The position numbers and the translations under genes are program-made. Below, piece after piece: positions 30,431 through 46,645 of a DNA stretch of 64,000 bases; within the stretch, counting starts at the first letter, position 1; every line of letters starts with the position of its first letter. Below the pieces are notes generated by a model. That model did no database searches and was not told the origin of the DNA. It saw only the letters and a program-made list of their open reading frames with translations. Source of the stretch: Staphylococcus phage LY01; sequence record OR836606.1. One strand, given 5' to 3'.

Positions 30431-30592
30431 CATTTATATTAACTATATGAATTTCATATAGATTAGACTATATCTTATACTTCTAATAAGTATTATTATA
30501 TTTAATCGTTGGACAATCATAAAGATTGATGCTGATTAAGTTTATAAACTTTTCCAGCAATTAATAATATTTATACTGAGCCATTAAAATTA
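30431..30592 (-). ncRNA. miniature group I self-splicing intron (162 nt) in nrdE
   Basis: On the minus strand, in order: IGS GGCUCAG pairing with exon end CUGGGU (terminal U.G), P AAUUGCUGG, Q AUCAGCAUC, R GUCCAACGAUUAAAUA, S GAUAUAGUCU, P9 hairpin CUAUAUG/CAUAUAG, 3' tail ending ...AUAAAUG. Splicing yields ...SYVNQLG|QRNGAGALYL, a canonical NrdE junction. Confidence 0.75.
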
Positions 30593-31368: not shown

Positions 31369-32082
31369 TTAATTTATTTCTTGTATTGCTTTTAAAATTT
31401 CTCTTTTATTATAATTTATCATTTCTTTATCATACTTCATGATAACTTTTTCCAAATTCTTTACAATATCTTCGAAAATTTTTTCTGACTTTGGATATTT
31501 TAAACCAAATCTTGTTGGTTCATAAACTAATATATGTTCGATACTACTTAAAGTGTTAGAAAAAGAGTACCAAAATGATATTTGATCTGAAGATTTCCTA
31601 AAAGATAAAGTTCTTAAATCTTTTATCTTAGATTTTTTAGATATTTTTGTAGGTTTACCATTTGGTTTAAAATAATATGATACGTCTGAAGAGTTTATTT
31701 TCTTATCCTTCAAAAAACCTCCATTTTTATTAATTTCAGAAATTCCTTCTTTTATATAATTCGGAGAATTTTCTATAAAATTAATCATAAGTTTTTTACC
31801 GGATTTCTGAAATTGTTCATGGTCCATTGTATTTAATTTATCTTCTTTTAATTCATTCCATTTATCAATAAATAATTTTAATATATTTTCTTCTATATGA
31901 GAATTGGAGGTTTTTATAGAAAATGAATTATTTTTTATATTTCCATTCTTTTTATAATCTTCATTTACTTTTTGATAATATTTTAATATACCCTTACTGA
32001 TATTATCATTTTCATTTTCTATTTTTTGACTATTGTTTTTAAATGATTTAACTGAGCTGTAATGAATTATATTTTCTTCCAT
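31369..32082 (-). CDS. hypothetical protein (237 aa)
   Basis: ORF between nrdI and nrdE. Confidence 0.45.
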   Translation of the reverse strand: MEENIIHYSSVKSFKNNSQKIENENDNISKGILKYYQKVNEDYKKNGNIKNNSFSIKTSNSHIEENILKLFIDKWNELKEDKLNTMDHEQFQKSGKKLMINFIENSPNYIKEGISEINKNGGFLKDKKINSSDVSYYFKPNGKPTKISKKSKIKDLRTLSFRKSSDQISFWYSFSNTLSSIEHILVYEPTRFGLKYPKSEKIFEDIVKNLEKVIMKYDKEMINYNKREILKAIQEIN

Positions 32083-35201: not shown

Positions 35202-35389
35202 CATTAGATCTGCTATATAAATTCATGAGTTTAATTTAATTAAAATGAATTTATTCGACTTCGTCATCACTCTGACTTACTTTGCACTTTAAGTTTTTTC
35301 GTTATAAACTACTTCAACAGAAAGCTTTAATCAAAGCAGAGGTTAAAGCTCTTAAGTCATCGCATTTGGACATTTAGAGGAATAAGACC
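35202..35389 (-). ncRNA. predicted TnpB right-end / omega-RNA scaffold region (3' end of IStron)
   Basis: Non-coding, locally GC-richer, stem-rich segment immediately 3' of tnpB, as expected for the IS605-family RE and omega RNA. The guide would correspond to the first ~16-20 nt of terminase exon 6. Confidence 0.4.
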
Positions 35390-36559
35390 TCATTTAGCCT
35401 GCCCAACAAAACGCTTACCATACAGTTTTAAATTGACAGCAGCGTTATAATCTCTATCCATTTTATGTCCACAATCACAGGAATACCATCTATCTGATAG
35501 TTTCAACTTATCTTCTTTAGTTAGAATTTGGCCACAATTAGAACATAATTGAGTTGATGGAAACCATCTGTCAGCTACAATAATAGTATTACCATTGCTT
35601 TCAGCTTTTTGTTCAAGTAAAGTCCTAAACTGTCTCCAATTGGACTGTGCGATTGATTTGGATAGTTTTCTATTTTTAATCATATTTGAAACCTGTAAAT
35701 CTTCAATAGTTATATATTGATAATTGTTAATCAAGTTAGTAGTAATCTTATGAAGATAATCTTTTTTAATATTATTAATTCTATACCATACTTTTTGTAT
35801 TTTGGTTTTCAATACATTGTATTTATTAGAACCATAAACTTTTTTAGATAATCTTTTTTGGTAGTATTTGATTTTATTATAGAGTGAGATTAGTTTATTA
35901 TTTAATGAATGGTATTTTTTAAATTTACCGAAATCATCATTAATAATAGCTAAATCTTTTACACCTAAATCAATACCTACATGACTATTGTTATGAATTA
36001 ATTTTTTACTGTTATCAACTTTCATTACTATCGAAGCGAAATACCTACCAGCATATTTGGATATAGTTACTTCTTGTATAGAATTATAATCTTTGTTTAA
36101 AGGTTCTTTCATTTTAATTAATGAATTTACACCACGCAATTTAAGTTTATTATTTTTCTCACCTTTAATTTGAATAGCGTAAGGATCTTTCCTATAGAAC
36201 CTTGCTCTTAATTTAGATTTCTTTTTAGATTTAAATTTAGGATATTTACCATATCCTTTCCACATCATATTAAATGCTTTACCTAGATCTTCTGTAGAAG
36301 TTTCAATTATCATGATAATTTGATCTTTCTCCCAATCTTCTTTACATTTTTTAAGTTCATCACGAACTCTACGATGAGTTGGTTTTGGTAAAGATTTATC
36401 AATTTGATAATTATTCCACATATATTTCCATTTATTAAGTGCCTTGTTATAAATATAACGACTATATCCAAAAGCTTGATTAAATATCTCTCGTTGTTCT
36501 TTATTAGGTTTCAATTCGATTTTTATAGATTTGTACATGTGATTTTCACCTCGATTCAT
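35390..36559 (-). CDS. tnpB: TnpB (IS605/IS1341-family OrfB RNA-guided nuclease, 389 aa)
   Basis: N-terminal YKSIKIELKPNKEQ...FNQAFGYSRYIYN HTH-like start. RuvC-I GIDLGVKDLA, RuvC-II ITIEDL, zinc ribbon CSNCG...CDCGH, RuvC-III DRDYNAAVNL. Intact frame. Confidence 0.85.
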   Translation of the reverse strand: MNRGENHMYKSIKIELKPNKEQREIFNQAFGYSRYIYNKALNKWKYMWNNYQIDKSLPKPTHRRVRDELKKCKEDWEKDQIIMIIETSTEDLGKAFNMMWKGYGKYPKFKSKKKSKLRARFYRKDPYAIQIKGEKNNKLKLRGVNSLIKMKEPLNKDYNSIQEVTISKYAGRYFASIVMKVDNSKKLIHNNSHVGIDLGVKDLAIINDDFGKFKKYHSLNNKLISLYNKIKYYQKRLSKKVYGSNKYNVLKTKIQKVWYRINNIKKDYLHKITTNLINNYQYITIEDLQVSNMIKNRKLSKSIAQSNWRQFRTLLEQKAESNGNTIIVADRWFPSTQLCSNCGQILTKEDKLKLSDRWYSCDCGHKMDRDYNAAVNLKLYGKRFVGQAK

Positions 36560-36599
36560 ATTTCTAAATGATTTAGAATTTATAATTCATTGTTTAATA

Positions 36600-37140
36600 T
36601 ATCGAGGTAAAAATTATTTTAATTAAATTAAACTCACGAATTCCAGAAATCCCTTTCAGGTTCTGTTAAATAGCAAGACTATATCATGATCCATTAAATC
36701 AATGGACCCCTCGCACTTCGAAAAACTTCTGATGAAGTTAATCTACTCTACTCACTTCACATAGTATTTCAACTATGCTTATTCAGGTTAATCAAACCTG
36801 TGCTTTCGATAGTCGTTGAACGTTTATCCATCATGTGGACACTTCGCTGCTAGACTTCCCATTGTTTACAAACTTTAGCGATCTAGGGTTTTCACCTAGA
36901 CTTGTTTTCAGCATAGTTCATCTTAGAGATTTTTTCTGTCTTTCGACTGCATGTCACGCTATCCATTACTGGCATACGTTGTAGCTCTCTAAGCTTTAGG
37001 GTTTTACAAGCAATTCACGAGGTATTTTTACCACTAATTTCATGAATTAAAATTAGTTTAATTTACTTATATAGTAGCAGAGCGTGAAACATGAATTAAT
37101 AAGAATTTAAGTCTTAATTCACTTAAAATATCTTAAATTA
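36600..37140 (-). ncRNA. full-size group I ribozyme core of the IStron (5' part)
   Basis: P/Q/R/S elements in canonical order on the minus strand. Long peripheral insertions. P9-like hairpin CAGAA.../...UUCUG before the tnpB start. Begins immediately after the terminase exon 5 sense codon, so the in-frame UAA is the first 3 intron nt. Confidence 0.65.
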
Positions 37141-37977
37141 AAACTGTTTCGTTACTCTAGATTTTTTAGTTGTATCAATACCATATCTTCTTACTTGTTT
37201 GGTAACTTTATTAGTGCTATTTCTAGGAATTTCATTAAATACTTGCTTATTAACTTCAACTTGTTTTTCTGCTACTCTATTCTTTAATGAGTAGAAAATA
37301 TTGTCTCCAATACCATCAGTTTGAATCATATCTTCTATCATTACAGTACCTGCATAGTTACGTTCAGGTATTAATACTGCATTAGGTATATAAAGCGTAA
37401 TAAGTTCTTTAATTAATTTTCTAAAAGTAGGTCCATTAATTACATTATTTTGGAAAATCATTACAGGCTCTAATGTACCTGGATCAACTACAGTAAATGC
37501 AGTATTATCTCGACCAAGACCACCAGATATATCAATACCAACAAGCCAGTTCTTTTCATGCATATTATCCATCTTTTTAACCATATAAACATAATAAGTT
37601 TTACCATTTATTTTAAAATCAATAGTATTATATATCTCTTTATTTGCATATAATGATAATTCTGACATTTGTTGTTCATCAAATAAAGAATCATCGTTAC
37701 TAAACGCCCATTCAAGAAGTATCTCACGTTTAACTGCTTCTAAAGAACCAATTTGACGTTTTTGCTTTTCTAACCAAGCATCATCTTTACCTAATTCTTT
37801 ATATGAATATTCTATATAGATGAATGAATTGCCTGAATTACTTTCCATATACTCTTCTAATTTTTCATTACCCTCTTCTTCAGAATTAATGTAATAATCA
37901 TATATTTTTTCTGTCCATTGTGCTGCATCATTCATTTGCTCAAAGAAGAACTGTCCTTGAGGTACATCCAAAGTACT
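37141..37977 (-). CDS. terL: terminase large subunit, exon 5 of 6 (nuclease domain: STLDVPQGQ...WLVGIDISGGLGRDNTAF...)
   Basis: RNase H-like terminase nuclease motifs (first catalytic Asp in GIDISGG). The annotated ATG at 37980-37978 is predicted to be the intron 4 3' end. The stop at 37138-37140 is the IStron's first 3 nt. Confidence 0.75.
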
Positions 37978-38138
37978 CATATTTTTTATCCTATATTAAT
38001 TTAATATAGATAAGACTATATCTTAGTATATTATAATACCATTTATTATTTAGTCGTTAAACAAGTATTATCAACTTGATGCTGATTGTCTTAATAAAGA
38101 TTTTCCAGCAATTAAATAAATAAGCCCAGTTTAATTTT
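37978..38138 (-). ncRNA. miniature group I intron, terminase intron 4 (161 nt)
   Basis: IGS GGGCUU pairs with exon end GCCU (terminal U.G). P AAUUGCUGGAAAAUC, Q AAUCAGCAUC, R GUUUAACGACUAAAUA, S GAUAUAGUCU, P9 CUAUAUUAAAUUAAUAUAG, ends ...AUAUG. Confidence 0.7.
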
Positions 38139-38210
38139 AGGCGTTGTTGTAATTAGAAGACCATAAGGTGTGCCATTTTTCTTAGCTATTGCAGATGCTG
38201 TAGAAACTGC
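38139..38210 (-). CDS. terL: terminase large subunit, exon 4 of 6 (72 nt: AVSTASAIAKKNGTPYGLLITTTP)
   Basis: Encodes the ATPase coupling motif III (ITTT), as in T4 gp17. Exactly 24 codons between two predicted introns. Confidence 0.65.
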
Positions 38211-38370
38211 CTTTTAATATTAATCTACATGGATTCCATATAGAATAGACTATATCTTAGTATTATATTAATACTATTTATTATTTAGTCGTTGAACACT
38301 ATAAATAGCGATGCTGATCGTCTTAATAAAGATTTTCCAGCAATTAAATAAATAAGCCCGCATTAATTTC
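38211..38370 (-). ncRNA. miniature group I intron, terminase intron 3 (160 nt)
   Basis: IGS GCGGGCUU pairs with exon end GAGGCCU (terminal U.G). P/Q/R/S elements. P9 CUAUAUGG/CCAUGUAG. Tail UUAAUAUUAAAAG. Confidence 0.7.
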
Positions 38371-38440
38371 AGGCCTCATTGCTTCAAACATTGTTTGGTT
38401 GTGTGGAATGAATGCCCACTCATCCAACCAGACCATAGGT
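38371..38440 (-). CDS. terL: terminase large subunit, exon 3 of 6 (70 nt: ..PMVWLDEWAFIPHNQTMFEAMRP)
   Basis: Encodes the Walker B/catalytic carboxylate region (VWLDEWAFIP, compare T4 gp17 IYIDECAFIP). Frame is phase 1 and is completed by the 14-nt micro-exon. Confidence 0.65.
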
Positions 38441-38596
38441 CATTATGTTAACTATATTTAAAAAATATAGATCAGACTATATCATACTCATATAAATAAG
38501 TGAATATATTTAGTCGTTGAACACTATAATTAGTGATGCTGATTAAGATAATAATCTATTCCAGCAATTAATATTCTTTTACTACTGCAACTATCT
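38441..38596 (-). ncRNA. miniature group I intron, terminase intron 2 (156 nt)
   Basis: P1: micro-exon end CUACUGU pairs with IGS GCAGUAG (7 bp, terminal U.G). P AAUUGCUGGAAUAG, Q AAUCAGCAUC, R GUUCAACGACUAAAUA, S GAUAUAGUCU, P9 CUAUAUUUUUUAAAUAUAG, tail UUAACAUAAUG. Confidence 0.6.
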
Positions 38597-38610
38597 ACAG
38601 TAGAACCACG
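38597..38610 (-). CDS. terL: terminase large subunit, micro-exon 2 of 6 (14 nt: CGUGGUUCUACUGU)
   Basis: The only segment length that restores frame between exon 1 (ends with the complete codon GGU) and exon 3 (phase 1). Bounded by omega-G of intron 1 (AAAAUAG|) and the U.G pair of the intron 2 P1. Confidence 0.5.
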
Positions 38611-38737
38611 CTATTTTAGACTATATCTTCAATTTTATAATTGTCTTTTATTTAGTCGTTGAACACATATGTGATGCTGATCAAATTAAATAATTTGTCC
38701 CAGCAATTAAAAAGATTTATAGCAAGCCATGATATTA
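38611..38737 (-). ncRNA. miniature group I intron, terminase intron 1 (127 nt, no P9 hairpin)
   Basis: IGS AUGGCUUGCU pairs with exon end AGCAGGU (7 bp, terminal U.G). P AAUUGCUGGG, P5 CAAAUU/AAUUUG, Q AUCAGCAUC, P6 ACAU/AUGU, R GUUCAACGACUAAAUA, P8 CAAUU/AAUUG, S GAUAUAGUCU, then AAAAUAG|. Confidence 0.6.
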
Positions 38738-39398: not shown

Positions 39399-40562
39399 CT
39401 ATACATTTAATCTATCTGATTTTTTAATTAATGTTTGAATATCAGAAAGTTGTTGTTTTAATTCATTTTTAACTTCTTTATCATTATTAGGGTTACTTAT
39501 TTCAAATTTTAATGTTTTAATAATAGCTTCAATTGAATCCGTTGGATAGTCTCTATAGTCTCTAATAAACAATCTACTTGGATATAATAATTTCCTAACA
39601 ATTTTACCTAATAAAGTTTTACCTTTTTTATTTTCAGATTTAGTTCTAAATGATTTGTATATGATATCATAAAAATTTATAATTTCAGTAGAATAACCGT
39701 ATAACGTAGGTAACTGATTAGCCGATCTTTCTGAAAGGTTGTAGTTCATTTTACCCACTCTTTCATTATCTAAAAGATTTAAAGTTACATTAGCTATAAA
39801 AGAACTGCCTAACACCAGTGGTAATACTCCTGTCAATGAAGTTAATCCAGCAACTAAAACTGTCATAGCTATAATCATAGGACCTGCGAATTTTAAATTT
39901 CTAGTTGTATCAGATTCAATGTCCTTAGTATACTGAAATTGAACTGGCTTGTTATCTTTATATTTTAATTCAAAAGCGGGTTCTTTTCCTTGGCTTAATA
40001 CTTTAATTTCGATAGGTAAAAATAGATTATGTCCCATTTCATGCAATAATAATGCAGTACACATTCTTTCATTAAAATTACTAAAAGTCACTTCTTTAGA
40101 AGATTTTTTCTTTTCTAAAAAGTATCTTATTGAAGATAACTCAATAAATACCTCAATTTCCCTAGGTTTAGCGTAATGTATACCATTTTTCTCTTCCATA
40201 ACTATTTTTGTTATGCCATCAATAGTATCTCTTATTTGTTCTGGCTTAATTAAAGTATAAGCCACTGATCTTACTCTAAATTTATCTTTACCTTTAGGAT
40301 CAGCTTCAACAAATTTTAATTGCATATTAGCATTAAATAATTTTTTAGTAATTTTAGAAATATTATTAGCTATTTTATTTATTTCATGTTTATCAATTAA
40401 ATCAAATTCAGATTTATCGAAATTATAGCTATCTAATAAAGTTTTAAATTCTTCATCTATTTCTCTAAGTAATGAAGTATTTTTACTGAAATTAAAAGCA
40501 TCTTCATTAATATTCATTATTTTATTAATTTTATTCAATTGGCATTCTTTTCGTAAATCCAT
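39399..40562 (-). CDS. putative membrane-associated Zn metallopeptidase (HExxH; 387 aa), paralog A
   Basis: LLHEMGHNLFLP motif. Predicted TM segment (FAGPMIIAMTVLVAGLTSLTGVLPLVLG). Strong similarity to the adjacent ORF. Confidence 0.5.
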   Translation of the reverse strand: MDLRKECQLNKINKIMNINEDAFNFSKNTSLLREIDEEFKTLLDSYNFDKSEFDLIDKHEINKIANNISKITKKLFNANMQLKFVEADPKGKDKFRVRSVAYTLIKPEQIRDTIDGITKIVMEEKNGIHYAKPREIEVFIELSSIRYFLEKKKSSKEVTFSNFNERMCTALLLHEMGHNLFLPIEIKVLSQGKEPAFELKYKDNKPVQFQYTKDIESDTTRNLKFAGPMIIAMTVLVAGLTSLTGVLPLVLGSSFIANVTLNLLDNERVGKMNYNLSERSANQLPTLYGYSTEIINFYDIIYKSFRTKSENKKGKTLLGKIVRKLLYPSRLFIRDYRDYPTDSIEAIIKTLKFEISNPNNDKEVKNELKQQLSDIQTLIKKSDRLNV

Positions 40563-40589: not shown

Positions 40590-41696
40590 TTATATATCAG
40601 GTGTTAACCTATCAGACATTTTTATTAATTTCTGAATGTCACTAATAGTTTTCTTTATTTCTTCTTTAGTTTTAGCATCATTATTACTATTAGATAATTC
40701 TTTTTGTAATATTTTCACATTACTCTCTATTATATCTGTTTCCCAATCTTTATAATCTCTTATAAAAAGGTTGAAAGGATATAATAATTTATTTTTAATT
40801 TTATTAATTTTACTGTTGTTATATATTGGTGGTTTACTACCTTCTAATTTATCTATCTCTCTAACTATTATTGTAGTTTTAGTTAATTCTCTAGCATAAC
40901 CATATAAATTAGGAAGATAATCTGCAGTTCTTTCAGTTAAATTATAATCTTTATTATTTTTATTTTTCTTTATATTTCTGTTTAAAAAAACAGTTGTAAC
41001 CATTCCACTTCCGATACCTATAGGTGCATTAACAATACTTAAAAAGATAAAGAATAAAGTCATAGCAGATATCATAGGTATAGCAAATTTTTTATTTCTT
41101 TTTTCATCTTCTTCAATATCTTTTGAGTAAGAAAACATTTGAGGTGGATTATCTTTATATTTCAATTCAAATTTAGGAGTTTTTCCTTTATTAAGTACAT
41201 TTAATTCTAAAGGTAAAATTAAATTATGTCCTATTTCATGAAGTAAGACTGAAGTTAATAAACTTCCATCAAATAGATTGTCTATTATTTTATTTTTACC
41301 TTTTAATAAAATACAGTATCTTATAAAGTTTAACTCCATATCAACTATTATTTTAGTCGGTTTAGCATAATATATCCCATTTTTTTCTTCAGAGACTATT
41401 TTTAATAATCCCAATGCTATATCTTTTGCTTGTTTTTCATTCCATCTTGTTTGACCTATGAAATTACATGAATAATATTTAGAATCATTCAATTCTAAGA
41501 AATTAAATCTCAAATCAGTGTTAAATAATTCATTACATATTTTCTCTATTTCTTTTTCTTTATTTTTAAAATTAAAGTCAATAAATTCTTCTTTATTAAG
41601 ATCATATGAATTTATTAATTCATTAAATACATTATCAATTAATTTTAGCTTATTCTTATTTTTACTATTAATAAACATATCTTCGTTAAGAAGCAA
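40590..41696 (-). CDS. putative membrane-associated Zn metallopeptidase (HExxH; 368 aa), paralog B
   Basis: LLHEIGHNLILP motif and TM segment. Shares EKNGI(H/Y)YAKP, NFIRY, LTER(S/T)A..LP.LYGY and the C-terminal SDIQ.LIK.SDRL with 39399-40562. Confidence 0.5.
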   Translation of the reverse strand: MLLNEDMFINSKNKNKLKLIDNVFNELINSYDLNKEEFIDFNFKNKEKEIEKICNELFNTDLRFNFLELNDSKYYSCNFIGQTRWNEKQAKDIALGLLKIVSEEKNGIYYAKPTKIIVDMELNFIRYCILLKGKNKIIDNLFDGSLLTSVLLHEIGHNLILPLELNVLNKGKTPKFELKYKDNPPQMFSYSKDIEEDEKRNKKFAIPMISAMTLFFIFLSIVNAPIGIGSGMVTTVFLNRNIKKNKNNKDYNLTERTADYLPNLYGYARELTKTTIIVREIDKLEGSKPPIYNNSKINKIKNKLLYPFNLFIRDYKDWETDIIESNVKILQKELSNSNNDAKTKEEIKKTISDIQKLIKMSDRLTPDI

Positions 41697-45283: not shown

Positions 45284-45506
45284 ATGTCTAAAGATATAAA
45301 AGCTTATCTTATTAATGAATCTAACACAACTTCTCAACCAGAAGTAGTTCAAGATAATAATAAATCGGTTAGATTCATTGCTGAGTTACAAGAAGCTGAT
45401 AGACAAAACCGTAATGGTCGTGTTTATCGTAAAGATGTTATTCAAAGTGGTTTAGATAGTCCAGTAATACAAGAAAAATTAGCAAGAAAAACTTTTTATG
45501 GTGAGT
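45284..45506 (+). CDS. head-region hypothetical protein, exon 1 of 4
   Basis: Ends ...KTFYGE. Exon end GUGAGU(U) pairs with intron IGS GGCUCAC (terminal U.G). Confidence 0.6.
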
Positions 45507-45660
45507 TTTAGGTTAAATGGCTCACATTAAATTATATTAATTGCTGGAAAAGATTATTATCTTAATCAGCATCAACTTAATACAAGTTGTTCAACGACTA
45601 AATATATAGCCTAGATGATATAGTCTAACCTTTATTAAAATGATAAAGAATAATAATTTG
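45507..45660 (+). ncRNA. miniature group I intron 1 (~154 nt, boundaries +/-3 nt)
   Basis: IGS GGCUCAC, P AAUUGCUGGAAAAG, P5 GAUUA/UAAUC, Q AAUCAGCAUC, P6 AACUU/AAGUU, R GUUCAACGACUAAAUA, S GAUAUAGUCU, P9 CUUUAU/AUAAAG, tail AAUAAUAAUUUG. Confidence 0.7.
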
Positions 45661-45920
45661 CAGGACATCCTTTAAGTGATGAACCTAAACGACAAATGTA
45701 TATTGATCAACGTAATATTTCTCATATCGTTACTAGAACATGGTGGAATGGTAATAAATTAATGGCAGAAGTAGAAACGGCACAAACAGCAGCTGGTAAA
45801 GATATGAAAGGTTTAATCGGACAAAAGTCTGACGTATCTTTCTCAATGCGTGGTTTCAGTAAAATTAATAGAACACCTTCTGGCGAAGTTGAAGTTACTA
45901 AACCTTTAAGATTAATCTGT
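45661..45920 (+). CDS. head-region hypothetical protein, exon 2 of 4 (..SGHPLSDEPKRQMYIDQ...PLRLIC)
   Basis: Frame open from 45657 upstream of the annotated ATG. Ends at the complete codon TGT. P1 of the next intron is CUGUU/AGCAG. Confidence 0.6.
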
Positions 45921-46101
45921 TAAATTGTAGCAGCTTTATATAGAAATATATATTGAAAAAGAATATTAATTGCTAAGAAGTTTAATTAAGCCAATTAGCA
46001 TCAACTTAATACAAGTTGTTCAACGACTAAATATATTTACTCTTAATAAGAGTATGATATAGTCTAATCTTAATAGTAAGATCTATTAAGTTAATATAAT
46101 G
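45921..46101 (+). ncRNA. miniature group I intron 2 (~181 nt)
   Basis: P AAUUGCUAAGAAG with compensatory Q AAUUAGCAUC (P4 covariation relative to the other copies). R GUUCAACGACUAAAUA, S GAUAUAGUCU, P9 CUUAAUAG/CUAUUAAG, tail UUAAUAUAAUG. Confidence 0.65.
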
Positions 46102-46121
46102 TACGATAAAATAAACCTTGT
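46102..46121 (+). CDS. head-region hypothetical protein, micro-exon 3 of 4 (~20 nt; only frame YDKINLV is open)
   Basis: Segment between omega-G of intron 2 (46101) and the predicted 5' splice site of intron 3 (UUGU|, IGS GCAA 10 nt downstream). Alternative lengths of 18 or 24 nt are possible. Confidence 0.4.
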
Positions 46122-46293
46122 CGCTTCTTAAAGCAATTTAAGAATGATAAAACTATTAATTGCTAAAATCTTTTATTAAAGTAATTAGCATCAACTTAAT
46201 AAAAGTTGTTCAAAGACTAAATATAGTTTATCCTTTTATAGGATAATGATATAGTCTGATCTATATTATACTAATATAGATAACATAAATGTG
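46122..46293 (+). ncRNA. miniature group I intron 3 (~172 nt, boundaries uncertain by a few nt)
   Basis: P AAUUGCUAAAAUC, Q AAUUAGCAUC, R GUUCAAAGACUAAAUA, S GAUAUAGUCU, P9 CUAUAUUA/UAAUAUAG, tail AUAACAUAAAUG(UG). Confidence 0.6.
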
Positions 46294-46645
46294 GGTAGTA
46301 ATTCCATCTCATCAAGATTCTTACATTCAAAATATTATTTCAGAAGGACACAATAATTATAATCCTAATGATTTACAAATGGTAAATGAATCAATTGATA
46401 TGTTCACTAATGGTAAAATTACTGAATTTTCTCCTAGAGAAGTTTTAACTTATATTAAAGAAAATTCAGATAATGTAAAATACATTGCTGAAGATATGGG
46501 GTTTGCTGGAGTTGATGAATCTAATATCAGTTATGATAAAGGATCTCAATTAGCTTCAATTAGAGAAAGTAATAAAACTATTAAAGTTTTCTTAGAAGAA
46601 TCTGTTCTTAATGGACTTGATGATTTCTATAGAAACTTTAAATAA
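46294..46645 (+). CDS. head-region hypothetical protein, exon 4 of 4
   Basis: Frame of annotated ORF 46289-46645. The annotated ATG at 46289 is predicted to lie within the intron 3' tail. Confidence 0.55.

Follow-up and report, generated by a model that had tools for sequence, protein, structure and literature searches.

Miniature group I introns predicted in nrdE, terL and the prohead-protease gene of Staphylococcus phage LY01

The 64,000-nucleotide (nt) stretch of Staphylococcus phage LY01 analysed here (sequence record OR836606.1; hereafter, the window) has 27% GC and belongs to a jumbo phage of the AR9/PBS1-like clade, with a large-terminase gene (terL) region that is 93% identical to that of phages PALS_2, S6, UFV_DC4 (hereafter, DC4) and MarsHill. 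Positions 37978–38737 lie on the minus strand within terL and hold four of eight short inserts; the others interrupt nrdE and the prohead protease gene. A sequence-only reading had proposed that these inserts are unusually small group I introns with common core strings P, Q, R and S at fixed spacing. Our analysis assigns a probability of roughly 0.9 to the view that they are group I introns without reading frames that would be removed from pre-mRNA by the standard two-step pathway, and canonical guanosine-initiated splicing is probably the only reading that fits all of their features.

The R string, GTTCAACGACTAAATA, occurs nine times in the window at three or fewer mismatches, against 1.2 expected, and repeat finding clusters the same eight places. 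A plain MAFFT alignment of the eight copies (A1) misplaced P3′ and P8 and was replaced by an N-padded, hand-made structural alignment (A2), from which a covariance model (R1) was built. With filters off, R1 finds exactly eight matches on both strands of the 64 kb, at 102–139 bits, with the next at 14.6 bits; it misplaces the 5′ end where P2 is present. The proposed eight-member family was borne out by this search and by a nearly constant spacing of 25–26 nt from P to Q, 18–25 from Q to R, 28–41 from R to S and 43–46 from S to the 3′ end (17 in the 127-nt copy). All eight lie on the coding strand of the gene that they interrupt, which puts five on the minus strand and three on the plus strand; they are 127–184 nt long, AU-rich (20–25% GC) and free of internal reading frames. 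The features, with all introns as predicted, are as follows.

30431–30592, minus strand: nrdE intron, 162 nt, no P2; absent from S6 nrdE; R1 129 bits
34797–35209, minus strand: terL exon 6, from the spliced TerL
35210–37154, minus strand: ninth insert (fifth of terL), about 1.95 kb, a larger group I-type intron with a TnpB gene; splice sites ambiguous
37155–37977, minus strand: terL exon 5, from alignment to S6 and the spliced TerL
37978–38138, minus strand: terL intron 4, 161 nt, no P2; P1 GCCU/GGGC; RF00028 26.5 bits
38139–38210, minus strand: terL exon 4, 72 nt, from alignment to S6 and the spliced protein
38211–38370, minus strand: terL intron 3, 160 nt, no P2; P1 AGGCCU/GGGCUU; R1 139 bits
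38371–38440, minus strand: terL exon 3, 70 nt; contains VWLDEW, read as a Walker B motif
38441–38596, minus strand: terL intron 2, 156 nt, no P2; P1 CUACUGU/GCAGUAG; R1 119 bits
38597–38610, minus strand: terL exon 2, a 14-nt micro-exon, CGUGGUUCUACUGU, encoding RGST(V) as in S6
38611–38737, minus strand: terL intron 1 (the fourth terminase insert of the sequence-only reading), 127 nt, no P2, no P9
38738–39379, minus strand: terL exon 1, from alignment to S6 terL nt 1–640 and the spliced protein
45284–45506, plus strand: protease exon 1, from comparison with the DC4 allele
45507–45660, plus strand: protease intron 1, 154 nt, no P2, no P8; P1 GUGAGU/GCUCAC
45661–45920, plus strand: protease exon 2, from comparison with the DC4 allele
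45921–46101, plus strand: protease intron 2, 181 nt; P2 UAUAUA-GAAA-UAUAUA
46102–46107, plus strand: protease exon 3, a 6-nt micro-exon, UACGAU (Tyr-Asp), required for ...LICYDWVVIPSH... as in DC4
46108–46291, plus strand: protease intron 3, 184 nt; P2 of 8 bp with a GCAA loop; P1 CGAU/GUCG
46292–46645, plus strand: protease exon 4, from comparison with the DC4 allele

Allele comparison shows that precise removal restores the host gene in nrdE, terL, the protease and gyrB of the cultured Staphylococcus jumbo phage AH12. S6 has an uninterrupted TerL of 677 amino acids (aa), and the window differs from S6 terL by four gaps that total 604 nt, the sum of 127, 156, 160 and 161. Joined at the coordinates of the sequence-only reading, terL gives ...SANKAG^RGSTV^PMVWLDEWAFIPHNQTMFEAMRP^AVSTASAIAKKNGTPYGLLITTTP^STLDVPQGQ... 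(junctions as carets), which equals S6 at all four junctions; with 35210–37154 also taken out, the spliced TerL has 677 aa and, counting the stop, agrees with S6 at 657 of 678 positions (97% identical). Spliced nrdE reads ...SYVNQLG^QRNGAGA..., the same as S6 across the junction, and comparison of gyrB between AH12 and S6 shows exact excision of a P8-less, 144-nt member (...FKGLG^EVNA...). Seven of the eight coordinate pairs originally proposed are exact against intron-free alleles. The remaining one, the third insert of what had been called the head gene (46122–46293), is wrong: with it the protease would read CYDKINLVVV instead of CYDWVV, and the true borders are 46108–46291, since the intron-free DC4 allele shows them. 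With corrected borders, 277 of 281 protease positions match DC4, stop included. As judged from these sequences, terL is rebuilt from six predicted exons, the 14-nt one included, and the 6-nt protease exon is recognised.

The prohead protease of phage Machias is annotated in GenBank as a three-piece join (L126 436–1770). It has the counterpart of window intron 2, followed by a short exon (11 nt as read, TACGACTGGGT) and then by a different family member, 5 nt downstream of the site of window intron 3. If so, the Machias gene would have four exons.

The reading frame resumes exactly past each insert, as would also be the case if ribosomes hopped over the inserts, in the manner of T4 gene 60, or if these were inteins. 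We regard such explanations as having almost no chance of being correct. In-frame stops lie 0–22 codons into all eight inserts (in terL intron 1, a TAA stands immediately past the 5′ splice site) and only two of the eight lengths are divisible by 3, and because of these two properties both read-through and protein splicing are excluded. Hopping, moreover, leaves a complete group I anatomy unexplained, and the T4 gene 60 hop covers about 50 nt, against 127–184 nt here. The same inserts sit in essential genes of cultured phages; the carrier phages form plaques and cannot do without terL, the protease or gyrB, so that removal of the inserts must take place in vivo.

The anatomy of the inserts is that of a stripped-down group I intron. 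At splice sites fixed independently from intron-free alleles, the exon nucleotide at −1 is U and faces a guide G as a U·G pair in all eight copies, within a P1 of 4–7 bp; P1 has 7 bp in terL intron 1 and in the nrdE intron (ACUGGGU/GCUCAGU, with the U·G). The internal guide sequence begins 7–14 nt into the intron, which we count as agreeing with the 7–12 nt first proposed. All eight introns follow U and end in G, and a P10 of 2–6 bp can be drawn in all eight, read from the sequence and without a chance control. Read in the same way, both micro-exons are almost wholly engaged by their flanking introns. In terL exon 2, P10 can be built from the first 6 nt (CGUGGU) and the loop that lies 5′ of the guide in the upstream intron, and the last 7 nt (CUACUGU) are the P1 strand of the downstream intron; the 6-nt protease exon is divided likewise, with UAC able to pair as P10 of the upstream intron and CGAU pairing in P1 of the downstream one.

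Behind P1, the copies retain P3, P4–P5–P6 and P7–P8–P9, with helices of 3–10 bp and loops of 3–7 nt. The conserved core elements P3, P4, P6, P7, P8, J3/4, J4/5, J6/7 and J8/7 are all present, with P8 missing from one copy; P9 is missing from another. J4/5 and J5/4 are A-rich. P7 has the expected G–C pair beside a bulged C, and the guanosine-binding motif A-C(bulge)-G-A-Y-U-A / U-A-G-U-C-U is invariant at the sequence level, with G–C in eight of eight (columns 99–103 against 137–141 of the structural alignment). P7 is joined to P3′ by AAU only in all eight, hence there is no P7.1/P7.2.

Covariation points to constraint on RNA structure. P3 is formed by the 6 nt before U-AAU-UGCUGG and the 6 nt after GAYUA-AAU and involves no alignment freedom, because invariant neighbours fix the register. 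It exists in seven sequence versions, all complementary (UAUUAU/AUAAUA, UCUUUU/AAAAGA, GAAUAU/AUAUUC, UUUAUU/AAUAAA, UUAUAU/AUAUAG, GAAUAU/AUAUUU and AACUAU/AUAGUU), and on A2 five of its six pairs covary, with all cells pairing. Across the whole of A2, an alignment fitted to the structure, 98% of cells are paired and 27 of 46 pairs have compensatory changes, against 30–45% pairing with a slid partner. RNAalifold on the plain, unfitted MAFFT alignment found P4, P5, P7 and P9 independently. Single-sequence folds of two introns recovered P1 and P4–P5 in both (z = −2.8 and −2.4). P6 to P9 are found as well in the 156-nt terL intron 2 (z = −2.8), where the centroid structure has P1, P4–P5, P6, P7, P8 and P9 and the minimum-free-energy structure all but P6.

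Both the covariance alignment and the folding had been suggested as checks, and both came out in favour of the reading that prompted them, as did its argument that RNA structure rather than a DNA repeat is conserved, given the covariation, exact excision and sense-only placement. Several of its anatomical details need amendment. The absence of P2 holds for six copies, in which P1 leads to P3 via 0–6 nt, and fails for the two longest, 45921–46101 and 46108–46291, in which P1 and P3 are separated by a 6–8-bp hairpin whose loop is GAAA or GCAA. The 3′ end, described as a P9 of about 35 nt plus a tail ending in G, has the G in all eight but no P9 in 38611–38737, where only UAAAAUAG (8 nt) follows P7′. 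The miniature P5, P6, P8 and P9 likewise apply except for this P9 and for P8 in 45507–45660, where just CCUAGAU (7 nt) separates P3′ from J8/7. As for P4, GCUGG/UCAGC versus GCUAA/UUAGC is a true compensatory change; GCUUGU/ACAAGU, cited as a third version, is in none of the eight and belongs to the ninth insert. Both reduced forms recur in cultured phages: the P9-less terL intron 1 is 98.6% conserved in MarsHill, and orthologues of protease intron 1 in Machias and AH12 are 92% identical, likewise without P8.

A cmsearch with the Rfam group I model RF00028, also proposed beforehand, bore out the helix assignment. On an 821-nt slice, the four terL inserts score 47.8 (intron 3, E = 6e-11), 42.1 (intron 1, E = 3e-9), 26.5 (intron 4, E = 1e-4) and 17.3 bits (E = 0.08), the best two just under the gathering threshold of 50, which is an operational cut-off and no biological criterion. 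The model aligns P3–P9 with the same helix assignment as ours and the sequence-only one, and the core strings AAUUGCGGgAAA, AAuCCGCAGC, GUUCAaAGACUAAA and AAGAUAUAGUC match its consensus. The copies do not fall into subgroup IA1/IA2, as represented by T4 td and Twort, since P7–P3′ is AAU in all eight and six of eight lack P2. The DC4 genome paper states that Rfam reported no introns in DC4 (PMC10638138), and our own searches found none of the mini-intron family there either; because of filter losses, a scan of that kind would miss the family.

Relatives are numerous. Searched by blastn with one intron, five cultured Staphylococcus jumbo phages have 99 matching places between them (AH12 29, Machias 29, PB50 20, Madawaska 12 and MarsHill 9), none of them annotated; at the sites examined, S6, DC4, PALS_2 and SA1 have no introns. 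Separately, a query of the AH12 gyrB intron with its exons gave six or seven ‘places’ in S6, DC4, PALS_2 and SA1, which may reflect gyrB/parE paralogy or a few divergent copies. In the whole AH12 genome, R1 finds 30 copies, all on the strand of the flanking genes and between gene fragments, with hosts that include RNA polymerase subunits, gyrB/parE, terL, nrdE and the protease. Their median length is about 158 nt, sizes being approximate except for the checked 144-nt gyrB member, as R1 misplaces the 5′ end in about half of the AH12 copies. Some exons are about 15–16 nt long, and three genes have P8-less members. Single AH12 genes can hold three or four copies in a row (for example, L248:11090–12084 and L250:12524–13301), and L250:13170–13301 is an apparent remnant without the entire P4–P6 domain.

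The mini-intron family is large, almost unannotated and common in metagenomic huge phages. An IMG/VR scan for the R...S core gave at least 120 loci, many on contigs of 200–400 kb, with up to 10 copies in 14 kb. On the loci listed, R1 has 158 matches in 98 loci, many on contigs of 360–401 kb, which we infer to be Jug-type jumbo phages; among the matches listed, the estimated median length is 169 nt and the flanks are open far more often on the sense than on the antisense strand. The shortest of these matches (114–138 nt) were considered as size records and rejected, since most of them cover only part of a larger intron. The 150 best matches comprise 103 distinct sequences, which have 91.5% of cells paired, versus 55% in shuffles, and compensatory changes in 41 of 41 pairs. 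Bacterial and archaeal genomes, especially those of Patescibacteria and Bacillaceae, often have the R...S core motif too, and R1 matches there are mostly single and span 205–265 nt.

This abundance, about 99 blastn places in five phages with no encoded protein and with presence/absence polymorphism among close relatives, is also what one would see if the inserts were DNA-level repeats, similar to miniature inverted-repeat transposable elements, that resemble introns by coincidence and leave host genes as pseudogenes or expressed in fragments. We consider this highly improbable. Such repeats in both orientations and in non-genic places had been named as the observation that would count against introns, and all 38 copies (eight of eight in the window and 30 of 30 in AH12) proved to be sense and intragenic. 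The copies have neither terminal inverted repeats nor target duplications; their ends are instead U^...G^ with guide pairing, and compensatory changes keep RNA helices. Furthermore, terL, the prohead protease, gyrB and nrdE are essential in phages that form plaques, and exons of 6 and 14 nt are too short to be genes in their own right.

Under the group I reading, the inserts would be transcribed within the nrdE, terL and prohead-protease pre-mRNAs. A guanosine docked in P7 would attack the phosphate after the exon’s last U, held in P1 as the U·G pair with the guide; the 5′ exon released in this way would then attack after the terminal G, with P10 aligning the 3′ exon, and the reading frame would be restored. 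The RNA itself is predicted to be the catalyst, possibly with an RNA chaperone or protein help. Such help is plausible, especially for the P8-less and P9-less forms, because six of the eight copies lack a GNRA loop or other recognisable tertiary clamp, the only GNRA loops being those of the two P2 hairpins. Relatives provide in vivo support: in gut jumbo phages, 37 of 76 predicted small group I introns had metatranscriptome reads that backed splicing (PMC12880540).

How far the inserts act on their own is a separate matter. They could be derived from group I introns and have lost self-splicing, with a trans-acting phage or host splicing factor or chaperone doing the work and the most reduced members perhaps needing the intron next to them or pairing with the exon. 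Many organellar group I introns need proteins (CYT-18, CBP2, maturases), and the missing clamps, the short (3–8 bp), AU-rich helices, the lack of P9 in 38611–38737 and of P8 in 45507–45660, and the capture of nearly all of the 14-nt and 6-nt exons by two introns each fit such dependence. The core (P3-P4-P6-P7, J4/5, J6/7 and J8/7) is nevertheless nearly base-for-base consensus; P8-less forms have spread to at least three genes, gyrB among them; engineered sunY derivatives of about 180 nt are reportedly active; and no candidate maturase was found nearby by Pfam or PHROGs among neighbouring open reading frames (ORFs). We judge a loss of autonomous splicing rather unlikely, if a serious contender.

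The guides suggest how copies might have multiplied. terL introns 3 and 4 are alike in their 5′ parts (P4–P5 region; repeat families D7 and D9), with 96% identity across 45 nt, and they have the same guide, GGGC, for target words GCCU that lie 233 nt apart. In AH12, the word before the splice site is UGGGU or UGAGU at 7 of 30 sites, which lie in different genes, with a guide GCU(C/U)A... found for six; the AH12 nrdE site and a protease site have the 7-mer ACUGGGU in common. Because of these common guides and targets, new sites may be picked by guide pairing in a spread of the reverse-splicing type, and reverse splicing with subsequent copying into DNA would be expected to leave such a pattern.

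A retron-type reverse transcriptase of these phages is a candidate for the copying step. The enzyme of AH12 (L251:6083–7636) and its homologues match RVT_1 (E = 5e-20) and have about 1.1 kb of non-coding DNA upstream. The idea that the enzyme tracks intron load was rejected, as all nine of the Staphylococcus jumbo phages have it, among them S6, DC4 and PALS_2, which are intron-free; the window ORF 85–1596, considered as a reverse transcriptase, is a baseplate protein. Pfam and PHROGs searches, covering 19 neighbouring ORFs, gave no homing-endonuclease genes in or beside the introns. Our more ambitious proposal is put forward tentatively, as something that we would not ourselves bet on: that the 127-nt form (no P2 or P9) and the 144–154-nt forms (no P2 or P8) may be the smallest natural self-splicing group I ribozymes, which could have reached about 30 copies per genome by guide-directed reverse splicing (UGGGU, GCCU), copied to DNA perhaps by the retron-type reverse transcriptase.

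A number of observations weigh against the group I reading or its extensions. Rfam scans of the 64-kb window, and of 18.5 kb at E <= 10, returned no group I match, and the curated RF00028 threshold is missed even on the slice (47.8 versus 50 bits); the whole-window negatives are a filter artefact, because the matches appear on the 821-nt slice and are dropped by the speed filters. The covariation counts on alignments A2, A3 and A5 come from alignments fitted to structure, and 20–25% GC raises chance pairing. The GNRA loops and receptors that usually stabilise the tertiary structure are absent, as are P2 from six copies, P9 from one and P8 from one, and autonomous folding at physiological Mg2+ is doubtful for some members because the usual stabilisers are absent. 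The case for reverse splicing depends on common short words, and the retron-type enzyme is present irrespective of introns.

Small group I introns of jumbo phages are already known; the extreme miniature form is new. Covariance-model hits in Jug gut jumbo phages number 2513 group I introns in 136 genomes, about 18 per genome, with a mean of about 206 nt (Sci Adv 2026, PMC12880540). Those intervening sequences likewise split genes of huge phages (terL and those for ribonucleotide reductase and polymerase), but the hosts are Bacteroides and only a mean length is given (PMC12880540), whereas the LY01 copies are 127–184 nt long, come from a Staphylococcus phage and have defined splice sites and forms without P2, P8 or P9. 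For MarsHill, Madawaska and Machias, Korn et al. inferred intron-split genes only from protein alignment; TerL was not confidently rebuilt, and intron class, size and structure were not described (bioRxiv 10.1101/2020.12.14.422802). The introns of these three phages and of AR9 are like those of LY01 in phage clade and host genes. The introns of Twort orf142 and nrdE and of T4 td, nrdB and sunY (IA2) are also alike in lying in phage protein genes, several per gene and, for Twort, in a Staphylococcus phage, and their R and S core sequences are very similar; they are about 250 nt or more, with P2 and P7.1/P7.2, whereas the LY01 copies have no P7.1/P7.2.

Bacterial tRNA group I introns span 184–894 nt, with a median of 255 (n = 269; bioRxiv 10.1101/2025.07.03.662931). 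The suggestion that the inserts lie at or below the known size minimum holds for the copies of 127–162 nt, which are below every size documented here, and not for those of 181–184 nt, as tRNA introns of 184 nt are known. Within limited literature searches, we found no natural group I introns of 127–160 nt, none described as lacking P8 or P9, and no usable statement of a ‘smallest group I intron’. The Azoarcus pre-tRNA-Ile intron, at about 205 nt, is usually cited as the small extreme. It and the bacterial tRNA introns are likewise compact natural ribozymes without reading frames, but Azoarcus is GC-rich and held by two GNRA loop–receptor clamps (L2–P8 and L9–P5), whereas the phage introns have 20–25% GC, mostly lack such loops and are 20–75 nt shorter. 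The sunY miniribozymes of Doudna and Szostak are said to show that activity is possible in a core of about 180 nt stripped of its peripheral domains; these are deletion constructs made in the laboratory and assayed in trans, whereas the LY01 copies are natural and in cis.

If active, the members without P8 or P9 would redefine the minimal natural group I core, and they would provide very short scaffolds for engineered splicing, for example in circular-RNA production, which currently uses introns of 250 nt or more. Standard Rfam scans miss the mini-introns, with the result that essential jumbo-phage genes are deposited as fragments or ‘hypothetical proteins’. With about 30 introns per genome, exons of 6–16 nt and a repeated guide-matched target word, spread by reverse splicing becomes testable in a culturable system.

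The ninth insert of the window, 35210–37154, has a core of its own (P AAUUGCUUGU, Q ACAAGUC, R GUUCAACGACUAUCG and S AUGAUAUAGUCUUG, with P4 GCUUGU/ACAAGU). Its TnpB gene (IS605 OrfB; 35390–36559, 389 aa; Pfam OrfB_IS605 and Cas12f1-like_TNB) is closed off by a 33-nt inverted repeat (36642–36610 with 35252–35220) that forms a 33-bp stem. Removing 35210–37154 gives an exact S6-matching TerL, but the 5′ exon then ends in G, not U; alternative U^...G^ borders cost TerL one arginine. Rfam returned nothing at this insert, and within the phage collection a relative turned up only in Listeria phage LPJP1, as a stretch of 70% identity. In its sequence, the insert resembles an IStron. IStrons are group I introns fused to an IS200/IS605 element, such as CdISt1 of C. 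difficile. The likeness lies in a group I core at the 5′ side followed by tnpB; unlike IStrons, the ninth insert is in a phage terL, with no tnpA gene noted and with ambiguous splice sites.

Two neighbouring regions of the window also differ between relatives. A 237-aa ORF between nrdE and nrdI (31369–32082, minus strand) has no Pfam or PHROG match and is absent from S6 and AH12, where nrdE and nrdI adjoin; it could be a mobile or free-standing endonuclease-type gene, with nothing yet in support. Just upstream of terL on the coding strand, between terL and the major-head-protein gene, are tandem paralogues of 387 and 368 aa (39399–40562 and 40590–41696, minus strand; repeat families D3 and D8, 72–74% nucleotide identity), where S6, MarsHill and Madawaska have a single 384-aa gene.

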